A program made the position numbers and the translations under genes. Positions 11,568-58,199 of a stretch of DNA of 64,000 bases are shown one piece after another (position 1 is the stretch's first letter; the number at the start of each line of letters is the position of its first letter). This DNA comes from a virus. The stretch is from positions 32,001 to 96,000 of the IMG/VR virus record IMGVR_UViG_3300036790_000396, one strand, 5' to 3'. Under the pieces are notes generated by a model. It was given only the letters and a program-made list of their open reading frames with translations. It did not search any database and was not told where the DNA came from.

Positions 11568-11746
11568 CTCTATGAATCTTCAACTTCATCTTCCGGCGTG
11601 GATACATTTTTCTTTACGCGTACGGAAAAGAAAAGGATGACGGAGAGAGAAGGTGCCCTCGGCTCCCGGTCTCCAGGTTCCGCGCTGCTGCGCCACCTGC
11701 GCCCGCCGGGTAGCCGCACGCGCGCTGGAAGGCTAGCTTTATTGAG

Positions 11747-13137: not shown

Positions 13138-13181
13138 CTCACTTCACTTCAGGCCATCAGGTTCACCAGGGAGAAGGCTTC

Positions 13182-14129
13182 ATGCCGAGTTTCAGCAAGG
13201 GTGCCGCGTCCGCAAAGGCTGCCGCCGAGGCGGCTTCCGGCGGCGGCCGGGTCTCGTTCTTCCGCCTCAAGAGCGGCGAGGCCCCCAGGTACGTCCGGTT
13301 CATCACGGACCTGGACGATCTCATTCACGTCCAGATGCACAACGGCGTCCCGACGAGGGACGCTCCGAAGGGCGCCACCAACTGGCCCAAGCAGATGGGC
13401 GCCGTCTGCCAGAACGACATCGCGTTCCGGCTCCTGCACGCTGAGGGGGAGCCCCTCGATCCCCCGCAGTGGGAGGACGGCAAGGGATCCTGCTACATCT
13501 GCGAGTTCAAGAAAGGCGTGAAGGGCACCTACGGCGGCAGCGTCGCCGACACGCGCCCGTACGTCTGGGGGCTCGGCGTCGAGCGCCAGCCCGTCACGAA
13601 GGACCCCAAGAGCGGCAAGTTCCGCCCGGCCGCGCCCGATGAGAAGATCAGCGCCTTCGCCGACGTGACGGAGACCGTCAAGACCGATGACGGGGAAGTC
13701 AGGATCCCCAAGATCCTCGTCTTCACGCAGGGGTGGAGCAACTTCTGGGGCACCCTGTCGCAGGTCACCTACATGGCCGGCTCGGTGTGCCTGACCGACT
13801 TCCGGATCACCCGCCAGGACAACGCCTACGAGTTCGGCATGGGCCTGGAGACCCCGGACCTCAAGCCGGGTACCGAGGCGTGGGAGAAATACTCCGGGGC
13901 CCTGGAGATCCGCAAGCTCACGCTGGAGGACGCGGTCCTGGACCAGGCCAGCTCCGCGTACTACGGGCGGTTCTTCGACCACCGGGTCAAGCACGAGGAC
14001 AGCGACGACTCGCAGTCCGCCGGCGCGAAGGACGAGGGCGCGAAGGTGTCGGAAGAGGACGTCGCCGACGTGCGCGCCCGCATGGCCGAGACTTTCGGCT
14101 CCTCGGACGTGTTCGCCACGAAGTCCTGA
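13182..14129 (+). CDS. gp32-like single-stranded DNA-binding protein
   Basis: FFRLKSGE..YVRF, His/Cys..CYIC metal motif, acidic C-terminal region, position before dnaE. Confidence 0.7.
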   Translation: MPSFSKGAASAKAAAEAASGGGRVSFFRLKSGEAPRYVRFITDLDDLIHVQMHNGVPTRDAPKGATNWPKQMGAVCQNDIAFRLLHAEGEPLDPPQWEDGKGSCYICEFKKGVKGTYGGSVADTRPYVWGLGVERQPVTKDPKSGKFRPAAPDEKISAFADVTETVKTDDGEVRIPKILVFTQGWSNFWGTLSQVTYMAGSVCLTDFRITRQDNAYEFGMGLETPDLKPGTEAWEKYSGALEIRKLTLEDAVLDQASSAYYGRFFDHRVKHEDSDDSQSAGAKDEGAKVSEEDVADVRARMAETFGSSDVFATKS

Positions 14130-14140
14130 TCCTCCGGGCT

Positions 14141-14207
14141 CCTCTCGCCGGAAGCGGGGGCCAGGGTGCACGCCGGGAAACCGGGCCTGGCACTCCCCGG
14201 CGAGAGG
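14141..14207 (+). other. Nested multi-stem RNA structure with GAAA tetraloop
   Basis: 14141-14151 pairs with 14197-14207; 14160-14165 with 14186-14191; CCGG-GAAA-CCGG at 14173-14184. Confidence 0.45.
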
Positions 14208-14211
14208 GACC

Positions 14212-14252
14212 GCGCGGGAGCCCGTCCATGGGTGCGGGCTCCCGCGCTTTTT
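14212..14252 (+). terminator. Rho-independent terminator
   Basis: 13-bp stem GCGCGGGAGCCCG / CGGGCTCCCGCGC followed by TTTTT. Confidence 0.85.
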
Positions 14253-14269
14253 CATGAAAAGGGACTTTC

Positions 14270-17200: not shown

Positions 17201-18484
17201 GAGCTGGCCGGCTACGACGGCGCCGAGGCCGACGGCGTCCGCAAGATCCTCGGCAAGAAACTCACCGCGAAGATCGCCGCCGCCGGGGAGGAGTTTGCCA
17301 GGCGCTGCGAGGAAAACGGACATATCTCCCGTAAAGAGGCAGAAGACATATGGGAGACAATGGCGACCTTCGGGAAATACGGTTTCAACGCAAGCCATGC
17401 TTTTTCCTATTCTGTTCTTGCATTCTGGACGGGATGGCTTAAATCGCATTATCCCGCCGAAACGCTGGCCGCGATCTGCACCACCCTGTCCGAGAAGGAG
17501 AAGGACCGTATCGGCCTGTACGTGAACGAGGCGCGCCGCCTGGGCATCGACGTGCGCCCCCCCGACGTGAACCACCACGCCCGCGGGTTCGCCGTCGAGT
17601 GGCCCCGCGACGGGGAGGAGTCCCGCCCCTCGGTCCGCTACGGGCTCGACGCCATCACCGGCGTCGGCGACAGCGCCCTGAAGGCCCTCGCCGCCGGCGC
17701 CCCGTTCGCGAGCTGGGACGCGGTCCGCGGCACCGTCAACTCCGGCGTGCTGCGCGCCCTCGTCACCGGGGGCGCCCTCGATGCCCTCGTGCCGTCCCGC
17801 CGTGCCCTCGCCGAGCACCTCGACGCCGACCGGGCCGGCGACCTCGTCCGCTGCGTCCACAAGGACGAGACCGTCTCCGGTCCCAACGGGCTGCCCTGTA
17901 CCTATGAGTGGGACAAGGAGCCGGTGATCGAGCGCCTCAGCGAGAGGACGGGCCGCAGGCTGCAGCCCCTGATCAAGCCCCCCCCGGCCCGCTGCACGCG
18001 CTCCTGCCGCCGTTACCAGCCCCCGGACCTGTCCGGCCTCGACGGATCCCTGTCCTACGCCCCGGACGTGCTGTGGCGCCTGGAGACGGGGCTGTTCGGC
18101 ACGTGGCTGTCCCCGGACGCCTTCACCGCGCTCGACGCCCGGCTGCCCGGTGCCTCCAGGCTGGGCGCCGAGCTGACCGACATGTGGGACGATCTCCCGG
18201 CCGGCATCTACCAGGTTCCCGCGGTCTTCCAGGGACTGCGCGAGACGGTCACGAAGGCCGGGAACACGATGGGCTGGCTCACTCTCGCTTCCGTGACAGG
18301 GATTATTGATATAAGCTGCTTCCGGCCGCGTGATCCCGGCGAACCCGACCTGCTTGCCGTCGCCGGGCGCATCCGGCCCGGTACCCCCGTCGCGGTCCTT
18401 GCCGAGCGGTCCCGGTACCGTACCTCCTCCGGCTGGCGCACGTCAGGCCGGCTGCGCGACATCAGGAGCATCAGTGCCCGCTAA
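14270..18484 (+). CDS. dnaE: DNA polymerase III alpha subunit, intein-containing
   Basis: HTHSEY|S..DG, ITDHG, GPGRGSAAGS, PDFDLDF, HPAG, LKLDFL, FQ.E, RPGP, YGFNASH. Confidence 0.97.
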   Translation: MAFAHIHTHSEYCVAPETKIALASLSWKKASDIEVGEEIVGFDEDLRPLEGEKGNSRSKMRRAVVTGKKSVFRECWRISLEDGTEIVASSLHGWISNGTTKGSLVRPGGPKGGYGTNTRRWVMTQDLTPGKSRLIKWASPWGDLPSDLAHDAGWLAGIADGEAWLNGGQFSFAQNPGVVLDRIKATCEKLGYGITADRAQWSASPTDCRTFRLNGYETVLRFLSQCRPSRFIGRSDEVWAGRRAGSRNTRPVLVSSLEYIGEAETIALETSTGTLVAEGFLSHNSPMDGLSRCREIAARAAADGHAHTAITDHGNCSGHPDFQRACDEYGISPVFGMEGYFIADRTEQPGPGDKEAQKRRRSYAHLILLARDNAGLRNLYSLSSEAYTSGFYAKPCLDWELLEKYGAGLTATTACLGGIISKPLLAGDWDTAAATLRRMRGIFGENFYLEVQPNLIPEQQRLNMLLKEVSASSGIPLAAASDAHYPSPAEESLHRTWMACQTGTGNDDYWQMDPMHDEAVVRDRLSRALGPDAARQACDNTVRIAEQCTARIGGEIVPPVFSSSYEEDSRALYQRASDALADRHSAGLLAGGSLDDYARRLGEEFCLVRDKRLSGCYLMVEDITTWARGEGILVGPGRGSAAGSLMSWLLDITVSDPIDAGLMFSRFLTPGRVSLPDFDLDFPSSQRGKIQDRVIGKYGADSVVRVGTHMRYRAKSVLDKLAGVAVSRGELPAEARTDMKAVSALIEEAESHTAGLGLPWDDLMSQLSDGLEPYVQKYPEIFSTAAVLVGRVRGYGTHPAGLVISTGQPLEGTLPMRIASAQDRTVVSQWDFRDMEAQGLLKLDFLTLRTLDSIQEAVRLIGQRTGHRPDPSRWTAEYRDPQVWEEIGTGRTLGMFQVETSLGARFCGDMKPRSIAELAHLVALVRPGPRNSGMDQAYLRRRAGKEEVQYPHPALEDRLRGQQGIMIFQEDILYACTELAGYDGAEADGVRKILGKKLTAKIAAAGEEFARRCEENGHISRKEAEDIWETMATFGKYGFNASHAFSYSVLAFWTGWLKSHYPAETLAAICTTLSEKEKDRIGLYVNEARRLGIDVRPPDVNHHARGFAVEWPRDGEESRPSVRYGLDAITGVGDSALKALAAGAPFASWDAVRGTVNSGVLRALVTGGALDALVPSRRALAEHLDADRAGDLVRCVHKDETVSGPNGLPCTYEWDKEPVIERLSERTGRRLQPLIKPPPARCTRSCRRYQPPDLSGLDGSLSYAPDVLWRLETGLFGTWLSPDAFTALDARLPGASRLGAELTDMWDDLPAGIYQVPAVFQGLRETVTKAGNTMGWLTLASVTGIIDISCFRPRDPGEPDLLAVAGRIRPGTPVAVLAERSRYRTSSGWRTSGRLRDIRSISAR
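14306..15121 (+). mobile_element. Intein (272 aa) in the DnaE PHP domain
   Basis: Begins CVAPET, ends GFLSHN|S; one LAGLIDADG-like motif WLAGIADGEA; visibly lower GC. Confidence 0.93.
18294..18315 (+). promoter_or_regulatory. Degenerate operator copy TGACAG-ggatta-TTGATA inside the dnaE 3' end
   Basis: AT-rich island within GC-rich coding sequence, upstream of recA. Confidence 0.45.
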
Positions 18485-20516
18485 GCCCAGGCAGACCCCC
18501 CTGGAGAAGTTCCAGGAGGAGACCGACAAGCGCTACTCGGCCCAGGTCAAGGCTCCCGACGCCACCGCCGCGCGCTATGACGTGATCAGCACGGGCGTGT
18601 GGTCCCTGGACCGGGCGCTCATTCACGGCGGCTGGATCCGCGGCCGGATCCACGAGCTGGTCGGCCCCCCGGACAGCGGGAAAGGCCATCCTCTCGGCAC
18701 GAGGATCATGACTCCCTCCGGATGGGAGAAGCTGGGCAATCTCCGTCCTGGAGATGAAGCATCAGGATCAGACGGGAAGCCCACCCGGATATCTGATGTT
18801 TACAAGCGCGGCGTGCTGCCGGTGTACCGGGTCACCTTTTCGGATGGGGCGTCCGTACGGTGCGACGGTGATCATCTGTGGCGCGTGCAGACTCCCAAGA
18901 TGAAGAACACTTCCGGTGGCTCCTACGTGAAGTCCGTCAGGGATATTGCTTCCGGGTCTCTGCTCACTTCTGACGGCAGGAAGAAATGGTGGATCCCGGT
19001 CTGCTCCCCGGTATGGCATCCTCAGTCAGAGCTTCCCGTAGATTCTTACCTGGCCGGAGTTCTCCTGGGAAACGGTGGCTTCACGAGCAGAGGCTCTCTC
19101 GCTCTGCACTGGGATGACAGGAACATAATAGAGAGGATCGAGAGGAGGACTGGCCTGCGCGCTTCTGAATATAACCCTACTACTGCTCTCCGCTTCTACT
19201 TCCCGGGGAGTCCGTCGATGATAAGGAAACTCGGGCAGGAAGGGTGCAAGAGCGCTGATAAATTCATTCCTGAAGAATATCTTCGCGCTTCTGAACAGGA
19301 CAGGCGAGATCTCCTTGCCGGCCTGATGGACACGGACGGATCAGTTGTTCCTATTTCTAGCAACTCCGCCGGAAACGCTAGCTTCAGCTCTACGAGCCGC
19401 GATCTGGCAGAAGGCGTAATAGAAATAGTAAGGTCTCTCGGAGGAATATCCAGGATATACGAGAATACCTACGGAGACAGGGAAAACATTCTCTACGAAG
19501 TGTCTGTTCTTCTCCCTGAATGCCCTTTCTACTCTCCCCGCAAGGCTGAGAAATGGACGCCTCCCAAGCGCGGGATATCACGGGCCATCACGTCCGTCGA
19601 GCTTGAGTCTGAAGAGGAGGTCTGGTGCATCCGGGTAGAAGCAGATGATTCCCTTTACATTACTGAGGATTACCTGGTCACGCATAACACCACTCTCATG
19701 ATCAGCACCGCCGTGCAGGCCCAGGCCCTGAAGGACGGCCGGGCCGGGTACGTCGACATGGAGGGCACCTTCGATGACTTCTGGGCCCAGCAGAACGGCC
19801 TGGACCTGTCCCGGGGCAAGTGGGAGCACCAGTACCCCATGGACAGCGAGGACGCCTCGGACATGGCCCGCAAGCTCACCGGCAGCGGCCTGTTCCCCCT
19901 CGTCATCGTCGACTCGGTCGGTGGCATGGAATCCCGCAAGGCCCTCGCCCGCGACGCTGCCGACGACCTGGTCGGGAAGAACGCCCAGGTCATCAGCCGG
20001 ATGGTCAAGCACCTCGCCGCGCTGGCCCGCGAGGCGAACACTGCCGTGATCCTCGTCAACCAGCCGCGCTCCGCGATCGGCTCCATGGGCGGCGACGTCT
20101 CCGCCGGCCCGAAGGCGATGCAGCATTCCACCACCACCCGCGTCCAGATGGCGCGCTCCGGCGGTGGCGAGGGCTACGTGCAGATGGTGCTGGAGGAGGG
20201 CGAGAAGCCGGAGACCGTCTCCCAGGAGTTCACGGCCCGCATCACCCGGTCCAAGGCGTTCCCGGTCTCGCGCCGGGCCACGTTCTGGGTCAACAGGATG
20301 GACACCGGCGAGTACGGGCCCGCGGGCATCAACCACGTCCACGACTATGCCGAGACGGGCATCAAGGCGAAGGTGATCACCCAGTCGGGCTCGTTCTACA
20401 CGCTGCCCGGCGGCGGCAAGGTACAGGGGCGCAAGGCGGTCACCGAGCGCCTGCGCGACGACGAGAAAGAGCGCGCCCTGGTGCGCAGGCTGATCCTGGA
20501 GGCATCCAAGCTGTGA
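18474..20516 (+). CDS. recA: RecA/UvsX-like recombinase, intein-containing
   Basis: ISTG..LD.AL..GG..RGRI.ELVGPPDSGK|TT, YVDME, IVDSV, LVNQ.R, GPKA; GTG start with AGGAG. Confidence 0.93.
   Translation: MPAKPRQTPLEKFQEETDKRYSAQVKAPDATAARYDVISTGVWSLDRALIHGGWIRGRIHELVGPPDSGKGHPLGTRIMTPSGWEKLGNLRPGDEASGSDGKPTRISDVYKRGVLPVYRVTFSDGASVRCDGDHLWRVQTPKMKNTSGGSYVKSVRDIASGSLLTSDGRKKWWIPVCSPVWHPQSELPVDSYLAGVLLGNGGFTSRGSLALHWDDRNIIERIERRTGLRASEYNPTTALRFYFPGSPSMIRKLGQEGCKSADKFIPEEYLRASEQDRRDLLAGLMDTDGSVVPISSNSAGNASFSSTSRDLAEGVIEIVRSLGGISRIYENTYGDRENILYEVSVLLPECPFYSPRKAEKWTPPKRGISRAITSVELESEEEVWCIRVEADDSLYITEDYLVTHNTTLMISTAVQAQALKDGRAGYVDMEGTFDDFWAQQNGLDLSRGKWEHQYPMDSEDASDMARKLTGSGLFPLVIVDSVGGMESRKALARDAADDLVGKNAQVISRMVKHLAALAREANTAVILVNQPRSAIGSMGGDVSAGPKAMQHSTTTRVQMARSGGGEGYVQMVLEEGEKPETVSQEFTARITRSKAFPVSRRATFWVNRMDTGEYGPAGINHVHDYAETGIKAKVITQSGSFYTLPGGGKVQGRKAVTERLRDDEKERALVRRLILEASKL
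18684..19688 (+). mobile_element. Class 3-type intein (335 aa) with LAGLIDADG endonuclease, inserted in the RecA P-loop
   Basis: Starts with Gly (GHPLGTRIMTPSGW); block B DHLW, block F VWC, block G VTHN|T; YLAGVLLGNG and LLAGLMDTDG motifs. Confidence 0.9.
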
Positions 20517-26349: not shown

Positions 26350-29300
26350 ATGACCTCCGGCTTCTGGGACATCGTGCAGGAGGCCGACGGCCTGCCGATC
26401 CCCGACATCATCACCTTCACCACCGGGCCGCAGTGGCTCGCGCGCCCGAACCTGTACCCGCGGCAGGCCACCCTGCTGAAGGTGATCTTCCTCCGCTCGG
26501 ACCTGTTCACCGACTATGACCGCCAGGTCATCGGCGAGTGGATCGCCGCGTTCGGGGCCACCAACCCCAACGCGGGCGGCGACAACAAGTTCGAGGCGCA
26601 CACCAACGGAATCCAGCCTGACATCTACGAGCGCATCGAGTGGCTGCGCGCTCACGGCTACCGCTGGTTCAAGGAAGTCATTCTCGCGATCGGCCGCCGC
26701 GGGTCGAAGGGCTATACCTGCGCGATTGCCATGGCCTACGTGCTGTACCACTACCTGGCCAAGGGCAACCCGCAGGACTACTACGGGATCATGGACGACA
26801 AGGTCATCCAGGCGCTGATCTTCGCCGGAAAGAAAGACCAGGCCAAGGCCAACCTGTGGGGCGACCTCAACAATGTCATCACCGCGGCGCCGTGCTTCAC
26901 CGATTACATCTCGACTCCCCAGGCCGAGTCGCTGACCGTGTTCGCCCCGCATGACTTCGCCCGGATCGAGGCGATGGCCGCCCGCGGCATCCGGTCGACG
27001 AAGGACATGGCCAGCTTCGCCGTGCTGCCCAAGGAGTCCACGCTCCTGTCGAGCCGCGGCCCGACCACCGCGATCCTCGGTTTCGACGAGGCCGCGCACG
27101 TCAAGAACTCCGGCACGTCCCGCTCGTTCGGCGACGTCTACAACGCCGCCACCCCGAGCCTCGACCAGTTCGGCGCCGACGCCTTCATCTGCATCCCGTC
27201 CTCCACCTGGGAGATGACGGGCATGTTCTACGAGCTGTGGGTCCAGTCCCTGTCGGCCGAGCCCGACGCCTCGGGCGCGATGCATGGCATCTACGCCAAC
27301 AAGCTCATGGTCCAGCTGGAGTCCTGGGCGCCGTACATCGACTGGGAGCGCGCCCCGGAGCTGCCGCTGTTCCCGCCGGATTTCAGGGGGGACCTCGGCG
27401 AGTACTCCGACGGCAACCTCCCCCGCCTGCGGGAGATGCGCGGCCCGATCCAGTCCTATGACGATGAAATGCGCCGTCTTGAGCGTGCTAATCCCGATAT
27501 GTTCGCAGTCGAGCGCCGATCTCACTGGGCGACCAGCCTCGACGCCTACCTGAACCCGACGAAGGTCGACGAGATCTTCCATCCCTGGGCGGAGCGCAGC
27601 CCCCGGTTCGGCCCTCCGGAGATCAGCGCCCAGCAGCGCGGCATCATGACCATGAGCTACCGCGCCCACGGGGATCCGAGTAATGTCGGAGCGCGCTTCG
27701 GATTTGCAATTGCCCATAAAGAGCCTGATGATAGCGGGATGCAGCATTGCCTGGGCGCTGAGACGCGCTACCTCACTGACAAAGGAGTCAGGACCCTCGG
27801 AGAGACGGCAGGGACGGTGCAGAATGTTCTCACCTCTGATCATGAGGGAGGATTTACCGGAAAATGGGTTAAAGCAGAAATAAAGTCATTCGGGGTACAG
27901 AAGCTTTACAAGGTTACTCTGCAGCGCAACAAGAAAGAAAAGGTAATATACGCCACTGAGGGTCACCGGTGGATCGGGAGGACTGCCGGGCGTCCTGCTT
28001 CAGTGAGAAGTACTTCTGGCCTGAAGAGAAGCTCCCCGTTCTCCCTGACCGCTACTTTCACGCCCGGATGTGATGCCGGACTGACTCCGGATGAGGCCGG
28101 GATACGGCACGGAATGATGACCGGGGACGGAACCGTCTACGATGGTTACGGAGTGCTGCGGCTATTCGGTAAGAAAATAGAGCTTTCCAGGTATTTCGAG
28201 GATCTTGCGGGATATAAGCCCCGCTACTCATCTCTTCCCAGCGGATGCCCCGCCCTGTTCATGAACGGGATCGGCCGCCTCCTGACGAGAAAGAGCCCTC
28301 CCTTGCAGGAGGAAAGCGACGAGTATCTCCTCGGATGGCTATGCGGCTACTTCGCTACAGACGGGAACATTAACGAGCAGGGACAGGCGAGGATCTCATG
28401 CGCTGACAGGAACATCCTGGAAGAAACTCGCAGCATCGCGCAGCGCATAGGAATATCCTGCTACGGAATATCCGAAACAGTACGGCGGGGACTCGGGAAA
28501 GAAAATACCTCTCTTTACACGATTGAATTTATCGTCCCGACTCTTCCGGGAGCATCGTTCTTCATAAGATCGGATCAGAGAGAACGTTATGAGGCCGCCT
28601 GGGTAGAGAAGAAAAAGAAATTCCTCCAGGTTTCCTGGCGAGTGCGCTCCGTGGAGCCCACGGACCGTTGCGAGGAGGTATTCTGCGCCGTCGTGCCGGG
28701 AACGCAGGCATTCGTGCTGGAAGACAACGTGCTCACGGGAAACTGCGTTTTCGACCTAGTTAAATACTGGGACCCGGCCGACTACGAAGATCACTTCATC
28801 GACTATGACGAGGTAACCGACTGGATATTCACTAACGGAGTGAAGCCGTTCTGTCCTTCGCTCCTGACGTTCGACCAGTTCAATGTTCCGGCTACGGTCC
28901 GCGTGCTGCAGAAGAAAGTGCGGCAGGAGCGCCTGCCGAAGCAGGTAATGGTCGACGAGCGCGTCGCCACGCGGGATAACAGCTGGCGTGCCTACGAGAC
29001 GTTCAAGGGCGCCGTGAACATGGGATTCGTGCACGCGCCCTTCCATGAGGAAGCGCGTGACGAGCTGAAGTTCCTGCAGAAGAAAGCGGGAGCGCCGGTC
29101 GTAATACCGCCTGATTCCGGCCCTGTCGTGACAAAAGACATAGCCGACTGCATGGCCATCATCGTCTACGAGCTGATCGGCGACCAGATGGCCATGCTGG
29201 ACGACACCCTGGGCGGCATGCTCCCGGTCGGCGCGATGCACACGTCCGATACGGACCCCATGAACCGCTTCGATCCCGGCATGTCCGCTGCCAACCCTTA

Positions 29301-29448
29301 TGCTAACTCGCTCGGAGGGATGGCGCTGTCCCGCGGCGGCAGGCCGGGCCCCCAGGGGCAGTTCCGTCCCGGCACCGTCGGCACCCGCAGCTCCCAGTCC
29401 CGGATGCCGGGCCGCTCCGGCGCGTCGTTCCGCCGGGGGCGCTCGTAG
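26350..29448 (+). CDS. terL: Terminase large subunit, intein-containing
   Basis: PRQ Q-motif, Walker A IGRRGSKG, Walker B LGFDEAAH, PSS coupling motif, nuclease AHGDPS, TFDQFN, KDIADC. Confidence 0.9.
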   Translation: MTSGFWDIVQEADGLPIPDIITFTTGPQWLARPNLYPRQATLLKVIFLRSDLFTDYDRQVIGEWIAAFGATNPNAGGDNKFEAHTNGIQPDIYERIEWLRAHGYRWFKEVILAIGRRGSKGYTCAIAMAYVLYHYLAKGNPQDYYGIMDDKVIQALIFAGKKDQAKANLWGDLNNVITAAPCFTDYISTPQAESLTVFAPHDFARIEAMAARGIRSTKDMASFAVLPKESTLLSSRGPTTAILGFDEAAHVKNSGTSRSFGDVYNAATPSLDQFGADAFICIPSSTWEMTGMFYELWVQSLSAEPDASGAMHGIYANKLMVQLESWAPYIDWERAPELPLFPPDFRGDLGEYSDGNLPRLREMRGPIQSYDDEMRRLERANPDMFAVERRSHWATSLDAYLNPTKVDEIFHPWAERSPRFGPPEISAQQRGIMTMSYRAHGDPSNVGARFGFAIAHKEPDDSGMQHCLGAETRYLTDKGVRTLGETAGTVQNVLTSDHEGGFTGKWVKAEIKSFGVQKLYKVTLQRNKKEKVIYATEGHRWIGRTAGRPASVRSTSGLKRSSPFSLTATFTPGCDAGLTPDEAGIRHGMMTGDGTVYDGYGVLRLFGKKIELSRYFEDLAGYKPRYSSLPSGCPALFMNGIGRLLTRKSPPLQEESDEYLLGWLCGYFATDGNINEQGQARISCADRNILEETRSIAQRIGISCYGISETVRRGLGKENTSLYTIEFIVPTLPGASFFIRSDQRERYEAAWVEKKKKFLQVSWRVRSVEPTDRCEEVFCAVVPGTQAFVLEDNVLTGNCVFDLVKYWDPADYEDHFIDYDEVTDWIFTNGVKPFCPSLLTFDQFNVPATVRVLQKKVRQERLPKQVMVDERVATRDNSWRAYETFKGAVNMGFVHAPFHEEARDELKFLQKKAGAPVVIPPDSGPVVTKDIADCMAIIVYELIGDQMAMLDDTLGGMLPVGAMHTSDTDPMNRFDPGMSAANPYANSLGGMALSRGGRPGPQGQFRPGTVGTRSSQSRMPGRSGASFRRGRS
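27748..28743 (+). mobile_element. Intein (332 aa) with LAGLIDADG endonuclease in the TerL nuclease domain
   Basis: H|CLGAETRYLT...ATEGHRW...HGMMTGDG...WLCGYFATDG...EEVFCA...NVLTGN|C; lower GC. Confidence 0.93.
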
Positions 29449-29724: not shown

Positions 29725-29855
29725 CTTTCCCCTCACGGGCAGCCTGCCATCCGCAGGCGAGGGCGGCGCGGTGACCCGGGGCGACGCGGATTCCGCATGC
29801 GCCGGTCATGCCGAGGTCCCGGGTCCTGCGCCCCCGGAAGCTGCAGGAGGCACTG

Positions 29856-32800
29856 GTGACGACTGACATTCTCGCCCACTTCGAGGACGAGGGCGTGCGC
29901 AAGGCGGGGGGGCGTCCGCTGCAGCCGCTGCCCGTGGAGGACGGCCTGTACTACCGGGCTCACCATAAGGACGCGCCGTTCGGCCGCGAGCACGCCAGCA
30001 CGCAGAACATCGGCGAGCCGCCGTCCCCTGAGATGGCGAAGTACTGGGAACCGAAGCCGGGATACTCGGCCTTCTGGCATCCGCACCACCTGCGCCAGTA
30101 TCTCGATGAGATGGGCTGGTCAGATGCTGACGACATGAAAGGTCGGCGCGTGCTGATGTTCCGCGGTGCCCCGGTCGGTGAGGGCGCGGACGGAGAGCCG
30201 CGCGTGGTGCCGCATGCCGACAAGCCGGAAGCGTCGATGTCCCCGGGCCAGTTCCGCAGGCGGCTGGAGATCACGCCCGAGCCGGGCACGCGCTGGGACG
30301 ATCACACCTGGGGTCAGGGACCGTCCGGCCAGGTGGCAGATGACGGGTACCGCACTATCCTCGGGGCTGCCCGGCCCGGGCGCGGCCAGGAGACCTGCGG
30401 CTGCTGCCAGGGAAACGGCGAGCACCCTGACGGCACGGAATGCGACCGCTGCGACGGCTTCGGCCTGATGCACCGCGGCGACGACGCTCCGTACTGCCCC
30501 GGGCAGCCGCAGCCCCGCCGCCGGCACTGGCGCGAGGGTGCTGTCATCCCCGAGCCGAAGTGGGATCCGGAGCGCTATGAGAATGAGGGCCGCTCCTACT
30601 CCTCAGAGATGCTCGACAAGGGACACGAGTGGAAGCGCCAGGTCCGCAGGTCCCTCTCCCTGGGCACCATGACCAATGACGAGGCCCGCGAGTCCGGGTA
30701 TCACGGCCAGGGCCATGACCAGGGTGACGACGGGAGCGCGCGCCTGTCCTGGGAGCCGCTGCCGCAGCGCCTCTATCACGTCACCACTGACCTCGCCGGA
30801 GTCCGCGAGCACGGCCTGAAATCCCGCGACGAGCTGGGCCAGCAGCGCGGCGGCGGCCACGGCCTGGGCGGCGGGGAGGACGACACGATCTCCTTCACCG
30901 GTGATCCCGGCACCGCCCGCGGCATCCTGTCGTCCCTGCACGAGTTTCACCGCGCCCTCACCGGCCGCCTGTCCCCGCAGGCGATGTGGGACATGGCCCG
31001 CTCCGGCACCGGCGCCGCCCGTCCCTACCACGAGGGCATCGCGGAGAACTACCGGAGCGGGTGGAAGGACGGTGACCCGCTGCCCCTTCGCCTGCGCCAC
31101 GTCCTGAACGGGCGGGAGGGGGAACGCGAGCTGGCCACCCGCGAGGACATGGAACGCAGGAAAGGTCCCGGCTGGGAGCCCGAGGGCGAGCCCCTCATCG
31201 GAGATCACATGTTCAGCGAATGGTCCCGTCCCGCCTCGGAGGACTCCCGGCGCGAGTCAGCCGCCAGCCTCTACAAGGCATTCGCCTTCCACCGGATGCA
31301 CGCCGGCGGCCGGGAGGACCCGCTGTTCTTCGCGACGGACACGAAGTCGCTCGCGCGCAAGGATCCCCGCAACTTCGCCATCGTCCACGCCTCCCCCCGC
31401 CCCGGGGCCCGCGGCTACCGGGTCCACTCCCTGGGCGAGTGGCGCACCGCGGCCGGCGACGCCGTCAGCGTCCACCACTACGAGCGCCTGCGCGACAAGG
31501 GACAGCAGCGCGAGGCCGTTCGCGTCTCGGACGCTCCTCCTCCCGACCACGCGGAGTACTGCGGCCCCGGGGCGCGCACCGTCTGGCTGCACGAGGACGA
31601 CCGTGACCCGCGCTGCTCCGAGTGCGGCCACCGCGTCGCGGATCCCGCCACCGGGAAGCCGCCCGCCCGGACCCGCGAGCGTCCCCCTCGCCAGTGGGGT
31701 GCCGAGGTCGTCAACCGGCAGCGGGCGAAGCGCGCCCAGGGAGCACGCGGTCACTGGTCCCCGATGGACTGGGCAGCGGAGAACCCGCACCGGGCGGTCA
31801 CCCGCATCGCCCAGGACTCCCTCGCGGAGCAGTACCCGGACCTGGCCCGCACCATGCAGCTCCCGGACGAGCATGACATCTACCAGGAGAGCATGGAGGG
31901 GAACAGGCTGCTGCGCCGCATGCTCGGCCGCAACGGCTACCCGCAGCGGGAGGCTGCCCGGGCATTCGTCATGCCGCATGACCACCCGGAGGCCGGCGTC
32001 TCCCAGCCGGTTCTCGACGAGGACGGGCAGCCCGGCGTGGCACTGCTCCGTTCCCGGTTCACGCCCCTGATCCTCGCCCACGAGGCCGGGCACCTCCTGC
32101 ACGTCCACCACGCCGGGATCGACGCGGGCCCCTACTCCCACCGTCACGGGGAGGAGGCCGGGAGCAGGATGCCCGACGAGGCCATGCACGGCCCGGAGTT
32201 CTCCCGGCATTTCGCCGGAGCCCTCGATGCCATCTCGCCGGGCGCGGGCAGCGATCTCCTCCGCCACCGTGCCGATGCCGCCGCCCTGGTGAGCAACTAC
32301 CGCCGCCGGTTCCACAGTCTCCCCCCGGTGGAGGCGTCGATGCCCGAGCCCGACTACGACCCCTCCGAGCCGCTGCCCCAGGGACGCGGCCTCTTCTGGC
32401 GCCTGCACGACCCCGACGACCGCCCGCTCACGGAGCCGCACGCCCGCAGCCGCCGCGTGGACTGGGACTGGCTGAAGCCGGGTGAGACTGACCCGGACAC
32501 CGGCCTGAAGAACGTGCACATCCAGACGGGACTGCGCGGTTTCTCCGCATTCCAGTCACCGCACCAGCTGCACCGGTACATGGAGGAGTACGGCTGGTCG
32601 GAGGCGGGGCCGGACGGCGAGCACGCGTGGCCGGATTCCAGCCAGGTGGTCGCCTTCCACGGCAAGCAGGTGGGCCGGGGCGACGACGGCGAGCCTCTCG
32701 TCATCCCGCACCCGAACGAGAAGTGCTGCGGGCGCATCATCCACTCCGGCATGGACTGGGACGAGTTCGAGCACCACGTGCAGCGCACCATGGGCAGCGA

Positions 32801-35800
32801 CACCTCGTCTTCCCCCTGGAACCAGCAGCACGCGCACGAGAACTCCCCGGAGATCCGCTCGATCGAGCGGCATCATCACCCGCTGCGCCGCGGCCGGTTC
32901 TACCCGCGCGCGCTGCGCGGCGGCCGGTTCTACCCGCACGAGGGAGCGCTGATGCGTCACTTCGCGGCCGGCCCCGAGGACTACGGGATGGACCACCGGC
33001 CTGACACTGGCGGCCCCCCGCTGCATGACCTGACCGACAGCAGCGAGACGGACTGGAGCCTGCCCGCTGACTACTACGACCGGATGCACGAGTACAGCCA
33101 GAACTATGATGCCGATAACCGCTACGGCATCGCCGAGTCCGAGCGGAAAGTGCGCCGCTACCGGGGGCAGCCGGACAAGCGCGTGAGAGTCTGGCGCGCT
33201 GCGCCGGCCGTGAACCCGGAATCCCGTAACGGCAAGCGCGGCGAAATCAACCACGGCGACTGGATCGGGCTGAGCAGGCAGAAAGCCGTCATGGAGGCTG
33301 CGAAGGAGAACGACCCTCCGTCCGGCAGCCTGCCCGCAGACCATCCGCGCCGCTATCACATCTGGTCCGCGATGGTTCCGGCGAAGCACGTCCGCAACGC
33401 GGACGGGGATCTCACCGAGTGGGGCTATGCCGGCCCCGACATCAAGGACATCACGCACTTCAGCGAGTACTGCAGCCACCGCGCCCGCGCGAAGCGCGAG
33501 GGGATCCTCCGGCACTTCGCCGGGGATTCTCCCGCGACCGGGCACTACGAGGAGCCCACGGGCGGATCGCTCTACCCGGTGCGGCACGTGTTCACCGCCG
33601 TCCACCCGGACGGCACCCGCGCCGACCTCCGGTACGTCCTGTCAAAGTCGGGGCGGAAGGGCGCGATGGACTCGCGCTTCCATATTCCGGCCGGCTACGG
33701 CGAGTCCCTCGGAGTCCCGCTCGCGCGGGCCGCCCGGCGCATGCACCCGCAGGCGAGGATCACCGGCATGCCCGGCGTCGGCCAGGACTGGGACTCGCTC
33801 CTGCCCTCGGTCACCTCACTGCACCGCGGCCTGACGCTGCGCCTCCCCCAGCCGGATCACTCTTTCCTCCACGACGACTCGGTGCCGAAGTCACGCCGGG
33901 CCGCGCGCCTGATGGAGCTGATGGCGGGGCACCCGTCGATGCACTGGGCCAGCCGCCGCGGGCTGGCCGCCGCCGAGGAGGATTTCGGCAATCACGAGTT
34001 CCGCAGGCCCGGCGATACCCAGGTGATGCTCAGCGCGGACGCGCCGCGCCGTGAGGACGTGGAGACGGATCCCGAACGGCTGCTCGCGCAGGACGTCCAC
34101 GAGCACGCGGCCCCGCACTGGGAGGTGCCGCTGAGAGAAGGCGCCCCCGTGAGCGTCACCTCCGTGCGCTGGCGGCAGGGCAGCGGCCCGTGGAGCAAGC
34201 ACCTGTTCCGGGGCGGCCGGCCGTTCACCGCCGCCCGGCAGCGGGAGGGCGACGAGCGCGAGTGGAACGGCTACACGCTGCGCTACCGCACCGAGGACCA
34301 GGGCGAGCGCAAGCCCAGGCACGTCATCGAGGCGTTCCCCGCGGACGGCACGGTCGCCGGGCGGCTCACCTGGTACGGCGCCACCGGGAAGATCCACCGG
34401 ATCGAGACGGCCGGCCCTGAGGACGCCCGCGGTGAGTCCGGCGACGGCTTCGGCAACGGCGCCGATCACCGCCGCAAGGGGCTCGCGACCGCGATGTGGG
34501 ACTGGTCGCAGGAGATGACCCCCAGGGCCCGCCATTCCGGTGACCAGACCGGCATGGGCACGGAATGGGCCCGCTCCCTGCGCCGCAAGGGCGCCCGCCG
34601 TGACCCGGCGCTTCCCAACCCGCACACGGGCGGCGACGAGTGGTTTCATGGCAGCCCCTGGAAGTTCGGCCAGTTCGGGGAGAACAGCAGCACGCTGGAA
34701 TTCGAGGATGATCCTCATGACACCAGCCACTGGAACGCCCTCCTGGGCCACCATTTCGCGGCCAGCCACAAGACCGCCGAGGAGTTCGCGGGCGCCGAGC
34801 ACTCCGCAGATCCTGACGGCAGCTACGACGATGGCGAGCCGGCGCGGAACATCATCCACGCCCGGCTGCACCTCACGAACCCGAAGATCTATGCCTCCGA
34901 GCACGACATGGACCAGGAGGCATACGAGCACGAGTGGAAGGCCGGCAACCACCACGACCTCCATCATGAGCCCGAGCTGCGCGATGATGAATGGGGCGGC
35001 GAATACGATCCCGATTATGACGAGCGGCCCCCGACCTACCAGTACGCCGGGCACGGCGACCGGATGCGCTCCCAGGAAGAATCTGACCCGTCCTACTGGA
35101 ACCAGTCACGTTCCTACCACCCGTACGCCACCGGCTGGCTGAATACCCACCCGGACAAGTACTCCATTGCGCAGCGCTTCAGGGACCGGCTGAAGGCCAG
35201 GGGCCACGACGGCATCGTCTACGGCAACGAGTTCGAGGGCTCCCAGATCGGCAAGGGCGACAAGCATCACCTGGCGGCGATTGCCTTTCACCCGCACCAG
35301 GTCGACGTGACCCAGCGGCACAGCGGCCCGGAGTGCATCGAGCCGGAGGCAGCCGGGCGCTCCTGGCCGGGCAGCCAGCAGCACCCTCTCCCCGGCATGC
35401 CGCGCGTGAGCGTCCTGCGGCACTTCGCTTCCGGCTATTTCGATGAGGTGAACTGGGACGAGATCCACCCCGAGATCGCGGGAGAGCCCCTCCACCGCGG
35501 CGTCGGCGTGACCCTTCCCGGTCACCTGCACCGCTTCGTCCACGACAGGGCGCTGCCCCGCCAGCAGCGCGCGGAGGCGCTCCTGGACTACCTGGGCGAC
35601 TCGGAGAAGCACGGCTACGGACGGGATTCGCAGGCGGGCCTGGGCACTCACTGGTCGATGCGCCGGGACACGGCCGAGAACTTCGCCGAGAACGCCGCGA
35701 AGCACGAGGGCGGGGGCGAGCCCCACCCTGACTACGGGATGATCCCCGGCGAGCGCGAGCACGCCGTCTACACGCCGCCGCCGCGGCCCGCGTCCAGGCC

Positions 35801-36674
35801 CGGCACCGCCGTGGTCTTCCATTCCCGCGTTCCGGACCGTGACGACATCGACGAGCGCGCCGGCGACGACATGGGCGTCTACCACCCCTACTCGCATGAC
35901 GAGGCGGAGGTGCCCGTGCGCTCCGGGGCCGGGATCGGCCTGACCGGCGTCTCCTGGGCACCGGTCCACGACGAGGACGACCCGCGCTCGTGGGACGGCC
36001 CGCAGTACGAGCACCACGAGTTCGGGGAGCCCGACTACCGTACGGCAGCCCGGTCGGGGAGCATGCCGCACCCGGACTACGATCCGTCGGAGGAACTGCC
36101 CGAGGGGCGCGGGATCTTCTATCGGGCGCACGACATGCGCCGTCCGCTCGATGAGCAGCACGCCCGCAGCGCCCCGCTCAGCCACGGCTACCGCCCGTTC
36201 CAGCAGAACCCCGTCTTTTCTGTCGGCCAGCGCGGCTACTCCTCTTTCCGCAGCCCGCACATGCTCAGCTCGTACATGGACGAATACGAGTGGGAGCCCG
36301 CGAAGGACCGGGAAGCAGTTGCCTTCCACGGGAAGCAAGTCGGGGTCGGGGAGGATAACGAGCCGCTCGTAGTCCCGGCCCCGGATCCGCATTGCTGCGG
36401 GCGCGTGATTCATTCCAGGATGCCGTGGGAGGAGTTCGAGCGGAAGACGTGGCCCTCGCACCTTAATGACCCGGAGTCGGAGGAGCACGGCTACCATGAC
36501 GTCGGCGCGCTCCCGCAGCCGTTGCGCCAGCCCTGGGCACCGGAACGCTGGGTGCCTGGTGCCCGCCCCTGGGAAAGCCCGGGGGACCGGTCGGAGCGCC
36601 GTCACCAGGAGAAGGAAGACCGCCGCCGCGAGCGCCGGGCATCCGCGCTGACCCTTACGGAGGCCATGGCATGA
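29856..36674 (+). CDS. Giant polyvalent protein (about 2270 aa): multiple ART-like domains, CXXCXGXG Zn finger, zincin peptidase, GNAT acetyltransferase
   Basis: GTG 29856 with AGGAGG; HEAGH...HGPEF; RRKGLATAM; FHGS...HFA...GHDGIVY.N.FEG; LHRG...HWS...EAEV; three YR.H...GYS.F...DGEP repeats. Confidence 0.85.
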   Translation: MTTDILAHFEDEGVRKAGGRPLQPLPVEDGLYYRAHHKDAPFGREHASTQNIGEPPSPEMAKYWEPKPGYSAFWHPHHLRQYLDEMGWSDADDMKGRRVLMFRGAPVGEGADGEPRVVPHADKPEASMSPGQFRRRLEITPEPGTRWDDHTWGQGPSGQVADDGYRTILGAARPGRGQETCGCCQGNGEHPDGTECDRCDGFGLMHRGDDAPYCPGQPQPRRRHWREGAVIPEPKWDPERYENEGRSYSSEMLDKGHEWKRQVRRSLSLGTMTNDEARESGYHGQGHDQGDDGSARLSWEPLPQRLYHVTTDLAGVREHGLKSRDELGQQRGGGHGLGGGEDDTISFTGDPGTARGILSSLHEFHRALTGRLSPQAMWDMARSGTGAARPYHEGIAENYRSGWKDGDPLPLRLRHVLNGREGERELATREDMERRKGPGWEPEGEPLIGDHMFSEWSRPASEDSRRESAASLYKAFAFHRMHAGGREDPLFFATDTKSLARKDPRNFAIVHASPRPGARGYRVHSLGEWRTAAGDAVSVHHYERLRDKGQQREAVRVSDAPPPDHAEYCGPGARTVWLHEDDRDPRCSECGHRVADPATGKPPARTRERPPRQWGAEVVNRQRAKRAQGARGHWSPMDWAAENPHRAVTRIAQDSLAEQYPDLARTMQLPDEHDIYQESMEGNRLLRRMLGRNGYPQREAARAFVMPHDHPEAGVSQPVLDEDGQPGVALLRSRFTPLILAHEAGHLLHVHHAGIDAGPYSHRHGEEAGSRMPDEAMHGPEFSRHFAGALDAISPGAGSDLLRHRADAAALVSNYRRRFHSLPPVEASMPEPDYDPSEPLPQGRGLFWRLHDPDDRPLTEPHARSRRVDWDWLKPGETDPDTGLKNVHIQTGLRGFSAFQSPHQLHRYMEEYGWSEAGPDGEHAWPDSSQVVAFHGKQVGRGDDGEPLVIPHPNEKCCGRIIHSGMDWDEFEHHVQRTMGSDTSSSPWNQQHAHENSPEIRSIERHHHPLRRGRFYPRALRGGRFYPHEGALMRHFAAGPEDYGMDHRPDTGGPPLHDLTDSSETDWSLPADYYDRMHEYSQNYDADNRYGIAESERKVRRYRGQPDKRVRVWRAAPAVNPESRNGKRGEINHGDWIGLSRQKAVMEAAKENDPPSGSLPADHPRRYHIWSAMVPAKHVRNADGDLTEWGYAGPDIKDITHFSEYCSHRARAKREGILRHFAGDSPATGHYEEPTGGSLYPVRHVFTAVHPDGTRADLRYVLSKSGRKGAMDSRFHIPAGYGESLGVPLARAARRMHPQARITGMPGVGQDWDSLLPSVTSLHRGLTLRLPQPDHSFLHDDSVPKSRRAARLMELMAGHPSMHWASRRGLAAAEEDFGNHEFRRPGDTQVMLSADAPRREDVETDPERLLAQDVHEHAAPHWEVPLREGAPVSVTSVRWRQGSGPWSKHLFRGGRPFTAARQREGDEREWNGYTLRYRTEDQGERKPRHVIEAFPADGTVAGRLTWYGATGKIHRIETAGPEDARGESGDGFGNGADHRRKGLATAMWDWSQEMTPRARHSGDQTGMGTEWARSLRRKGARRDPALPNPHTGGDEWFHGSPWKFGQFGENSSTLEFEDDPHDTSHWNALLGHHFAASHKTAEEFAGAEHSADPDGSYDDGEPARNIIHARLHLTNPKIYASEHDMDQEAYEHEWKAGNHHDLHHEPELRDDEWGGEYDPDYDERPPTYQYAGHGDRMRSQEESDPSYWNQSRSYHPYATGWLNTHPDKYSIAQRFRDRLKARGHDGIVYGNEFEGSQIGKGDKHHLAAIAFHPHQVDVTQRHSGPECIEPEAAGRSWPGSQQHPLPGMPRVSVLRHFASGYFDEVNWDEIHPEIAGEPLHRGVGVTLPGHLHRFVHDRALPRQQRAEALLDYLGDSEKHGYGRDSQAGLGTHWSMRRDTAENFAENAAKHEGGGEPHPDYGMIPGEREHAVYTPPPRPASRPGTAVVFHSRVPDRDDIDERAGDDMGVYHPYSHDEAEVPVRSGAGIGLTGVSWAPVHDEDDPRSWDGPQYEHHEFGEPDYRTAARSGSMPHPDYDPSEELPEGRGIFYRAHDMRRPLDEQHARSAPLSHGYRPFQQNPVFSVGQRGYSSFRSPHMLSSYMDEYEWEPAKDREAVAFHGKQVGVGEDNEPLVVPAPDPHCCGRVIHSRMPWEEFERKTWPSHLNDPESEEHGYHDVGALPQPLRQPWAPERWVPGARPWESPGDRSERRHQEKEDRRRERRASALTLTEAMA
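32883..32937 (+). repeat. Imperfect 30-bp-period tandem duplication (LRRGRFYP / LRGGRFYP)
   Basis: ctgcgccgcggccggttctacccgc ... ctgcgcggcggccggttctacccgc. Confidence 0.8.
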
Positions 36675-39600
36675 GCAGCCGGCAGGCAGCGTGGACGCCG
36701 TCCGAGCGCATCTTCGGCCGAACATGGGGCCTGGATCACCGGCTGTTCAGCGGGGACCGCATGCGCCCGGAAGTCCGCAGGACACTCCTGGCGCGGCTGG
36801 ACAGCGCGCTGGAGCCCGTCCTCGGCCCGCAGTGGCAGGTCTTCACCCGCGCCTACCTCATGGGCTCGCAGGCGTCCCGCTGGACCTCCCCGGAGCTGGA
36901 GGGCAACGGGGACCTCGATGTCATCCTCGCGGTCGACCCGGGTCATCCCCACGAGGACGCCGGGCACATCAACGGCATCCTGCGGCGCACGTTCGACCGC
37001 GGGGACTGGCACCCGCCGTTCGATCCCCGGGGCACCTACGACCTGACGGGCTACGTCAACCCGCTGGCCTGGAACGTCACGGACATCAGCCCCTACGCTG
37101 CCTATGACCTGACCGGAGACCGCTTCGCCGTGGACCCCCCCGACCTTCCCGACTGGTCCCCGGACCAGTTCCCGCAGGGAAAGGCCCTGCTGCAGGAGGG
37201 CCGGGCTCTCGGTGCCCAGGCCCGCGCGCTGCTGCGGATGCCCGAGCCGTTCCGCTCGCAGGAGGCGCGGCGGCTGTGGGACTACATCCGCTCCGGCCGC
37301 GACGAGGGATTCGCTCCCGGCGGGCTGGGCTGGCAGTCTGCCGGGAATGTACTCGAAAAGATGCTCGACCAGATGCCCGGCAACCTCGTCGGCCGCCTGA
37401 AGGAAGCCGTCTACGGCAGGCAGGTCACTGCCGGCGCCTACGACTGGGCTGCTGACGAGGGGCCGTACACCTGGGAGGAGATCGGCGACCGGTACCCGCG
37501 CGTCTACGGCGAGGACTCCGGCGACAGCGAGGGAATCGGCTGGGCGGCCTCGCACCTGTACCACGACCGTCCCGGCCATTCGCAGGACGACAGCACGGGC
37601 GAGGAGTCCGCCGACGACATGGAGTTCCACCCGCGGACGGTCGACCCGGCCCGGATTGACTACATGCGCTCCGAGCCGGGAGACCCGCGCGTGACCCGGG
37701 CCCGCAGGGGATATGAGAGCCAGCAGCCGGAAAAGGTCCCGCCGCTGATCCTGGTGCACCGTAACGGCGTGTTCATGCCAGCCGACGGCCATCACCGGGC
37801 AGAGGGCGCGGCCAGGGCCCGCAAGCCGGTGCGTGCCTACGTGGCCTATTCCCCGCACGATGCCGAGCCGTTCTCCGACGGGGAGCGGGGCCCGTTCAAC
37901 GGTGCCGGGACCAGGGAACGGCCCCCGCTGACGGACCAGGACGGCCGGCAGTTCCGGATATCCTACCCCGGGTTCCCGCATACGGCCGAGACGGAGATCC
38001 CGCCGCGGGAGGCGTCGCTCCTGAGCCACTTCGCGGCCTGGGAGGACGAGTACGACGATGACCATGGCGACGGCCAGGATCCCGATCGCTACGTCGAGTG
38101 CGACCAGGGCCACCGCCACTGGGGCGCCGCCGGGGCCGCTGGCCTCCTGATCCGCCATAAGCGCCCCTCGGGCGAGCACGAGTACCTGCTGCAGAAGCGG
38201 TCCCCGTACGTGCAGCACGGCGGCACCTGGTCCACGCCCGGCGGTGCCCTGGGCCACGGCGAGACGCCCGAGGAAGGCGCGGTGCGCGAGGGCGAGGAGG
38301 AGCTTGGCGGGCTGCCCGACGATCTCTGGCACAGCCACACGAGCCATGACGAGCACGGCGGATGGAAATACTCGACTGTCGTCATGGACTCCCCGCGCCG
38401 GTTCGAGCCTGAGGGCGGCGGCGAGAGCGACTGGGAGCACGGCGGCCACGGCTGGTTCACGCCGGAGGAGATGAAGGACCTCCCGCTGCACCCCGGATTC
38501 GCGGCGAGCTGGGACCGGGTCCGCAAGTCCGGGGCCCTGCGCCAGGCCGTCGTCGATCCCGCCAGCCTGCCCCGCGACCAGCTGAACGGGATCACGCGTG
38601 CCCGCGTCTACTACCCGCCGGGCCAGTCGGAGGACCGGCGCCTCCTCGACGTGGCGAGCAGGCCGCGCCCCGGCACCCGCGTGTGGCGCGGCGAGCTGCG
38701 CCCGGAGGGGGAGAACCCGGGGAACGTGCAGTCGGTCGGCATGCACTGGACCGTGAACCCCAGGGCGCTGCTGCTGCGCGGCAATGAGCCGGGGTGGAGG
38801 CAGCACGTCTGGCAGGGCGTCGTCGATGACTTCGGCTCCCAGGCGTTCCCCCGCAGCCATGATGTGTGGAGGGCGGTGCGCAGCGGCGACGGGGAGCACG
38901 AGATCCGTTTCCGCCCCGGTGCCCGGGTGCGCCTGGAAGGCGCCTACGTGTCCGGCAGCGGCACGGGGGACCGCCGGGAGCCGATGGGGATCCTGGATCC
39001 CCTCCACCCGGAGAGTACCGACCCGCGCTGGGAATGGCACCCGATGGACCGGCCCGTGACCGTCCGGCACCGCCCCGGGGCGCCCGGCTCTCCCTCGCGG
39101 GGAGGTGCTGACTACGCGTCCCTGGGCATCAGCCACGAGGGCGTGGCCCACGATGACTCCAACCCGTACCTGATGGTGGCCGTCGTCCCGCCCGAGCATG
39201 TCTCCGCCGCCCTCGCGGAGTCGATGGAGCCCCTTACCCGCCATGACCCGGAGCCGCCGGAGGAGCATCACGTCACGATGCTGTACCTGGGCAAGGAGAA
39301 GGACCACACCCCGGCGCAGCGCGCGAAGCTGCCCGGCCTGGTCCGGGAGTGGGCGTCCTGCCAGCAGCCGTTCACCGTCCGCGTGCAGGGCGCGGGGACG
39401 TTCGCTAACGAGGGCGAGCACACCGTCCACGCCCTGGTCGACATGCCCGACGGCCATCACCTCCGCACGTCACTGGAGGAGCACCTCGCCGGCCATGGCA
39501 TCTCGTGGCCGCGGGATCACGGGTTCGCCCCGCACCTGACGCTGGCCTACTCGCAGCAGCCGGTCCGGTTCCTGCCCAGTGTCCCGCGCTCGGAATGGAC

Positions 39601-39679
39601 CGCCGGCCAGGTGCACTGGTGCCGCGGGAAGGACTGGCAGCCTGTCCCGCTGGGCCGCGCGCCTGCTAAGGTTAATTGA
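36671..39679 (+). CDS. Multi-domain protein: Pol-beta nucleotidyltransferase, ParB/Srx, NUDIX, ART-like, 2H phosphoesterase
   Basis: MGS...GDLDV; ADGHHR; GGALGHGETPEEGAVREGEEELG; VWRG..MHWT..EHEI; HVT (39269) and HLT (39533). Confidence 0.88.
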   Translation: MSSRQAAWTPSERIFGRTWGLDHRLFSGDRMRPEVRRTLLARLDSALEPVLGPQWQVFTRAYLMGSQASRWTSPELEGNGDLDVILAVDPGHPHEDAGHINGILRRTFDRGDWHPPFDPRGTYDLTGYVNPLAWNVTDISPYAAYDLTGDRFAVDPPDLPDWSPDQFPQGKALLQEGRALGAQARALLRMPEPFRSQEARRLWDYIRSGRDEGFAPGGLGWQSAGNVLEKMLDQMPGNLVGRLKEAVYGRQVTAGAYDWAADEGPYTWEEIGDRYPRVYGEDSGDSEGIGWAASHLYHDRPGHSQDDSTGEESADDMEFHPRTVDPARIDYMRSEPGDPRVTRARRGYESQQPEKVPPLILVHRNGVFMPADGHHRAEGAARARKPVRAYVAYSPHDAEPFSDGERGPFNGAGTRERPPLTDQDGRQFRISYPGFPHTAETEIPPREASLLSHFAAWEDEYDDDHGDGQDPDRYVECDQGHRHWGAAGAAGLLIRHKRPSGEHEYLLQKRSPYVQHGGTWSTPGGALGHGETPEEGAVREGEEELGGLPDDLWHSHTSHDEHGGWKYSTVVMDSPRRFEPEGGGESDWEHGGHGWFTPEEMKDLPLHPGFAASWDRVRKSGALRQAVVDPASLPRDQLNGITRARVYYPPGQSEDRRLLDVASRPRPGTRVWRGELRPEGENPGNVQSVGMHWTVNPRALLLRGNEPGWRQHVWQGVVDDFGSQAFPRSHDVWRAVRSGDGEHEIRFRPGARVRLEGAYVSGSGTGDRREPMGILDPLHPESTDPRWEWHPMDRPVTVRHRPGAPGSPSRGGADYASLGISHEGVAHDDSNPYLMVAVVPPEHVSAALAESMEPLTRHDPEPPEEHHVTMLYLGKEKDHTPAQRAKLPGLVREWASCQQPFTVRVQGAGTFANEGEHTVHALVDMPDGHHLRTSLEEHLAGHGISWPRDHGFAPHLTLAYSQQPVRFLPSVPRSEWTAGQVHWCRGKDWQPVPLGRAPAKVN

Positions 39680-58192: not shown

Positions 58193-58199
58193 GCCCTGC

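Follow-up and report, generated by a model that had tools for sequence, protein, structure and literature searches.

A giant polyvalent protein with up to eight ADP-ribosyltransferase-like modules, encoded beside the terminase gene of an uncultured soil phage

Phage T4 carries the ADP-ribosyltransferase (ART) Alt in its capsid. Alt, about 680 aa in length, consists of one ART of the R-S-E type; it is delivered with the DNA and modifies host RNA polymerase as well as other proteins. T4 takes control of its host by means of such injected ARTs, and enzymes of this type play a central part in conflicts between phages and defence systems. Fusion to MuF is the classical route for loading an enzyme into the capsid. 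Polyvalent proteins combine between 2 and 15 domains of various kinds in one polypeptide, and surveys find that ARTs are the commonest of their modifying enzymes, often encoded by the terminase and portal genes (PMC5512222, PMC9503650). The same surveys argue for head packaging of the ARTs, NUDIX domains and 2H domains that are encoded by terminase or portal genes (PMC5512222, PMC9503650).

The giant protein described here is a polyvalent protein of this known kind (Iyer et al., 2017), with several unrelated effector and enzyme domains in one polypeptide, encoded by a phage with a terminase-portal system. Taken as a whole, our analysis moderately favors reading it as a phage-type polyvalent effector with up to eight ART-fold modules that would be packaged, cut and injected.

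Gene and genome context

The genome is a complete viral record of 146,944 bp with direct terminal repeats, belonging to an uncultured soil phage of about 147 kb. The window, i.e., the whole stretch of 64,000 nucleotides that was analyzed, covers bases 32001-96000 of that record and has roughly 70% G+C; coordinates are given in window numbering. In the ORF list, an uninterrupted plus-strand frame runs from 29808 to 36674, with an ATG at 29808. We take the giant gene to start at the GTG at 29856 (29856-36674, plus strand), because an AGGAGG (29845-29850) lies 5 nt upstream of it and because the product from this GTG, of 2,272 aa, is identical to an entry of the same length in the protein collection. 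This is also the start that the preliminary description of this DNA had chosen. Residue numbers refer to P0001, a 2,288-aa translation that is 16 residues longer than the 2,272-aa product. The GC3 of the gene (0.89) is in line with that of genuine genes of the same genome.

Directly upstream lies the gene for the large terminase (26350-29448, plus strand), which was recognized by PHROG terminase matches and contains a LAGLIDADG intein (Pfam LAGLIDADG_3). Intein-type LAGLIDADG inserts are found in three genes, namely, this terminase gene, a RecA-like gene (18330-20516) and the gene for a 1,227-aa pre-portal protein (57782-61465). The terminase is 31-34% identical to those of Rhodococcus (phage E3), Gordonia and Mycobacterium phages, the nearest cultured relatives by this gene, whose genomes measure 135-151 kb; for phage E3 and the Gordonia phages the identity is 32-34%. 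The portal gene is found 25 kb downstream of the giant gene, whereas the terminase-portal interval of the cultured relatives is far shorter and holds only hypothetical proteins of 700-800 aa. A replication block at 8661-18484 encodes a primase-polymerase/D5-like helicase and a 1,404-aa DnaE-type polymerase III alpha subunit, a combination that fits a large actinophage-like genome.

The next gene downstream (36671-39679, plus strand) encodes a 1,002-aa NUDIX and 2H phosphoesterase protein (Pfam NUDIX, 7.9e-14; 2_5_RNA_ligase2, 8.4e-12). The stop codon of the giant gene shares an ATGA (36671-36674) with the ATG of this gene, and the overlap suggests that the two are translationally coupled. The gene order of terminase, small ORF, giant protein and a second giant protein with NUDIX, 2H, Arr and GNAT domains recurs in at least seven relatives.

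Searches with the whole protein and with ten segments of it against Pfam and PHROGs returned almost no matches. Those obtained from these standard libraries are ART-PolyVal on module F (sub-threshold), DUF6098 on module A3 (weak) and the PHROG "ParB C-terminal domain" on module D. The whole protein had no tblastn match in 50,697 deposited phage genomes, and the profiles of the A, B, C, D, F and zincin families retrieved nothing useful from the PDB sequences.

Modules, repeats and shuffling

Family HMMs divide the giant protein into 13 modules from 10 families, in the order A1, zinc finger, C, S, zincin, A2, D, EN, B1, GNAT, F, B2 and A3. The preliminary description had read the locus as one gene with such a string of modules, and every coordinate it gave falls inside the matching HMM-placed module. 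A search of 5.8 billion proteins recovered about 40 giant homologues of 1.3-4 kaa, all metagenomic, in which the same modules are present in varying order and number. Since each module recurs, shuffled, in these proteins, we consider the module boundaries to be biological and not due to chance. The Arr-ms domains of the homologues could not be aligned to any part of the giant protein.

Self-BLAST detects the internal repeats A1/A2/A3 and B1/B2 at E values of 1e-12 to 3e-26. Within the protein, A1 is 33-38% identical to A2 and A3, and B1 is 29% identical to B2. Across phages the identities are higher, with A1 being about 80% identical to modules of two homologues (P0016 and P0025) and A3 73-79% identical to modules of two others (L007 and L011). 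Judged by these identities, the paralogues are old shuffled cassettes and not recent duplicates; because the copies are closer to modules of other phages, the shuffling of cassettes between phages explains the layout better than duplication in place. An earlier view of the protein as expanded by domain duplication is thus correct only in part.

Several modules are not ART-like. A DnaJ-type zinc finger with two CxxCxGxG units (30366-30542, plus strand) is evident in the sequence and is 53-72% identical in homologues, and the small Cys-rich module S (31506-31745, plus strand), zinc-ribbon-like in sequence, is kept in the homologues P0013 and P0024. The zincin-like metallopeptidase module (31770-32273, plus strand) has HEAGH at aa 758 of P0001 and HGPEF downstream; in 13 sequences there is no variation in HExxH, in an H upstream of it or in an H/D downstream. 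Against the Pfam peptidases it gives weak M66/reprolysin matches alone, all below threshold, and its profile had no match among PDB sequences. For the probable GNAT acetyltransferase module (34245-34589, plus strand), 6 of 15 family members match Pfam Acetyltransf_1 (best, 4.8e-6), the window's own copy having no Pfam match, and the family profile retrieves solved GNATs first (E = 0.0015); the module sequence contains R-x-x-G-x-A. By this family evidence, both assignments, already made in the preliminary description, are probable.

Module EN, of about 85 aa (33537-33794, plus strand, placed by its family HMM), always sits just before B1-type modules. It scores P = 91.5% against the GNAT family in hhalign, from iterated profiles, the kind of offline comparison whose scores were inflated elsewhere in the giant protein (B-F and A-zincin); EN is possibly a degenerate GNAT. 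A kinship between module A and the zincin was dropped, as its hhalign score of 98.4% with iterated profiles fell to 11% with clean alignments.

ADP-ribosyltransferase-like families

Module C (30624-31487, plus strand) is almost certainly an ART, as judged from its predicted structure. The AlphaFold model, built on a 53-sequence alignment, reaches a pLDDT of 93 and a pTM of 0.89 and displays the ART fold with helical inserts. The candidate triad of H (LYHVT), S/T (ISFT) and E (GEWRT) is invariant and falls on three predicted strands, namely, the first, the second and a late one. When 1.84 billion representatives were searched with a profile, the module proved to belong to a family of 704 clusters (50% identity), which include many stand-alone proteins of about 330-360 aa. 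None of these clusters matches Pfam, the source names of the C-family proteins (P0046-P0185) are all "hypothetical," and tblastn of the module against the 50,697 deposited phage genomes gave no match.

Module D (32964-33449, plus strand) was modeled jointly with A2 (32355-32804, plus strand, placed by its family HMM), and its predicted model likewise displays the ART fold. R (VWRAAP), GDW..S and E (EWGY) are invariant, giving a candidate triad of R (VWRAAP), S (GDWIGLS) and E (EWGY), and we consider module D very likely to be an ART on the strength of the model. D-type modules occur in at least 80 viral contigs, either alone or within other polyvalent proteins. Four deposited records from three phages, including Rhodococcus phage E3 gp206 and Gordonia phage CherryTomatoes gp109, contain the module under the names "ParB C-terminal domain" (the label of PHROG 2579 and of RefSeq), "aminotransferase" or "DNA repair protein."

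Models were made for A2+D and for C, since sequences combining several module families are scrambled when aligned by MAFFT. The ART pattern in both models is shown by VIA-align alone, and Foldseek against the PDB returned no match at E <= 0.001 for either of them. The check by AlphaFold and Foldseek that had been proposed for the modules is therefore favorable for C and D in its fold comparison by VIA-align and gives no match at this cut-off in its Foldseek part. A weak structural match to a cyanophage A4 pre-ejectosome protein was discarded, its paper making no mention of an ART.

Module F (34602-35390, plus strand; FHGS ... LGHHFA ... GIVYGNEFE) is ART-PolyVal-like and is itself likely to be an ART by sequence comparison. 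It scores 16.8-17.7 bits against ART-PolyVal PF18760 (E = 0.0065 at 17.7 bits for the segment), below the curated cut-off of 31.2 bits, whereas a region of the homologue P0029, aligned to F+B2 at an E value of 6e-66, passes the cut-off with 34.6 bits. We therefore treat F as a relative and not as a scored member of ART-PolyVal; among 17 F modules, a single one attains E = 0.1 with this family's model.

The two B modules (B1, 33774-34235; B2, 35442-36050; both plus strand), found by self-BLAST to each other and by HMM, keep R (HRG), W[ST] and ExE[VI]P, arranged as in R-S-E ARTs, and R, W, E-x-P and W are invariant across 40 sequences. None of the 40 B modules matches a Pfam ART model, nor any Pfam model at all. 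Clean HMMs of B and F match each other reciprocally and collinearly (5 of 17 and 12 of 40 at E < 0.01), which is the case for no other pair of families. The relation between B and F is kept solely on these reciprocal matches, because the hhalign score of 97.9% from iterated profiles dropped to P = 24% in a clean profile-profile comparison. On present sequence evidence, we lean towards B being an R-S-E-type ART.

Module A occurs as A1 (29913-30290), A2 and A3 (36078-36473), all on the plus strand and linked by self-BLAST and the family HMM. Its matches to MbcT and a DUF952 structure span the whole domain; these are its two best structural matches, both of which we take to belong to the ART clan, and the non-ARTs ERH and PC4 are matched at equal score. 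The language-model neighbors of A3 are Tse2-ART, Arr and DUF6098. Neither the whole protein (19.4 bits) nor the homologue P0016 (26.5 bits) reaches the DUF6098 (PF19593) cut-off of 27.2 bits, and 4 of 13 A-family members match this model weakly (E <= 0.1). A1 retains the family-invariant R, H, S and E, and a search for further A-family loci found almost none. We judge it reasonably probable that module A is a minimal ART-like fold.

All five ART-like families have invariant H/R, S/T/Y and acidic candidates in the classical order, and in A, C and D these candidate catalytic residues are positioned on predicted strands. We thus regard the ART modules F, C and D as well supported and the three A and two B modules as probable. 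The count of about seven or eight ART-like domains in the preliminary description is in keeping with this grading: C and D are backed by their folds and F by its ART-PolyVal homologue, A and B remaining just probable. As ART-like families without a Pfam model, A, C and D appear in no domain catalogue searched; this and the number of modules are what is new here. Families C and D are common yet uncatalogued, and recognition of their ART folds corrects existing labels and supplies candidate catalytic residues that can be tested across a large set of phage proteins. Up to eight ARTs in one protein would, if models and sequence comparisons are right, give the phage a small collection of host-targeting activities that are probably distinct.

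Packaging, processing and comparison with described systems

The same genome carries further copies of these modules among its head genes. Past the window end (genome coordinates are +32000), four more B modules are found at 65583-68866, in the two ORFs right after the portal gene, and one D module, at 82447-82827, lies inside an 1,800-aa ORF whose N-terminal domain (79618 onward) shares 44% identity with the capsid maturation protease of Stormageddon. Therefore, ART-like modules also appear to be fused to head proteins. Among viral proteins, the best match to module C in structure (E = 7.5e-5) comes from an uncultured phage, is 848 aa long and carries the annotation of a phage head morphogenesis domain. 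The Pfam MuF and S78 protease models found nothing in the whole genome. The conserved placement after the terminase, the fusions of B and D to head proteins, the head-morphogenesis relative of C and the published surveys together lend circumstantial support to virion packaging.

Short motifs mark several module borders. The linkers LMRHFA (32949-32966), ILRHFA (33504-33521) and VLRHFA (35412-35429), all on the plus strand, lie at the A2/D, D/EN and F/B2 borders, respectively. RHFA occurs 5 times in the predicted proteome, compared to an expectation of 0.3; 4 of these 5 occurrences are in the giant protein, and 3 are situated exactly at module borders, as [LIV][LM]RHFA. A related LLSHFA (at approximately 38022-38039) is found just before the NUDIX domain in the adjoining gene, and other module borders finish in TAA or VEA. 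The homologues do not share the LRHFA motif at their borders, and a role as universal linker was rejected on account of this absence. One homologue begins with LRHFA, and the motif may for this reason cap a module instead of marking a cleavage site. It is possible that the [LIV][LM][RS]HFA, TAA and VEA borders are processing sites or module caps specific to this genome.

The mechanism that we propose starts from one polypeptide with up to eight putative NAD+-using ART-fold modules of five families (three A, two B, C, D and F), together with two small modules, the DnaJ-type zinc finger and the putative zincin peptidase and GNAT acetyltransferase. This polypeptide would be produced late, along with the products of the head genes, and taken up into the procapsid, where its own zincin or the capsid protease may cleave it at the linkers into single enzymes, the LRHFA and TAA/VEA junctions being the candidate cut sites. 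The fragments would enter the host with the DNA, each ART acting on its own host target or component of a defence, and immune signals derived from NAD+ or ADP-ribose could be removed by the NUDIX/2H partner. In its most far-reaching form, which we consider doubtful, the giant gene would form a cargo-polyprotein system with its NUDIX/2H partner, the protease ORF and the ORFs behind the portal, in which a linker code of xLRHFA, xTAA and VEA|S, specific to the phage, is read by the capsid protease or zincin, a dozen enzymes are cut inside the head, and A, C and D are undescribed ART clades with their own targets.

The same enzymes might instead remain unpackaged, as a cytoplasmic multi-enzyme that acts late, for instance by modifying RNA, DNA or proteins of host or phage while assembly proceeds. 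The giant ORF has no MuF or portal fusion, and nothing larger than the 700-800-aa hypothetical proteins lies between terminase and portal in the cultured actinophage relatives, as would suit such a role. However, we hold this to be improbable given that the post-terminase position is conserved and the gene coupled to the next cargo-like gene, that head proteins of the same genome carry fused B and D modules, that a relative of C bears a head morphogenesis domain and that published context statistics favor packaging. Very improbable, in our view, is that the ART-fold modules for the most part lack transferase activity and serve as NAD+/ADP-ribose binders, as NADases or sponges, or as inert internal-capsid filler. 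Every copy retains the family-invariant polar residues at the three classical positions, which argues for catalysis, and five families in one chain suit distinct targets better than one shared ligand. These observations have to be set against the best matches of A and some of those of C and D, which are NAD+-degrading or non-canonical (MbcT, RES and Tpt1/KptA), the low identity to characterized ARTs (2-18% in one set of structural matches) and the coupled NUDIX/2H partner, which suits metabolite-directed chemistry.

A further possibility concerns the assignments themselves, namely, that F, C and D are the only ARTs and that A and B are unrelated small alpha/beta domains, serving as adaptors, in packaging or in target binding, with the R-S-E order arising by chance. 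The reciprocal, collinear HMM matches that B shares with F and with no other family, the coverage of the entire A domain by its two best matches and the ART families among the language-model neighbors of A all speak against this, and we consider it somewhat unlikely.

Among described systems, the ART domain of the RNA 2'-phosphotransferase KptA/Tpt1 is comparable at 4-17% identity; from it C differs by a helical insert of about 150 residues and an H...S/T...E triad and D by an R...S...E triad. The architecture of the giant protein is unrelated to that of T4 Alt, which we liken to it by description, as a precedent from the literature. MuF-fused phage effector and toxin proteins resemble the 848-aa viral structural match of C with its head morphogenesis domain, whereas the modules described here are strung together or fused to protease and post-portal proteins. 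The closest counterparts are the polyvalent proteins (Iyer, Burroughs, Anand, de Souza and Aravind 2017, PMC5512222; PMC9503650), which are likewise large, combine ARTs with a zincin-like peptidase (a putative one in the giant protein) and other enzymes, are encoded beside terminase and portal genes, have domains shuffled among relatives and are predicted to be head-packaged and injected. The typical polyvalent hub domains ParB, SNF2 and methylase are missing from the giant protein, although ParB is present in its relatives. What sets the giant protein apart from polyvalent proteins is that up to 8 of its 13 modules are ART-like, drawn from five families, three of which (A, C and D) lack a Pfam model.
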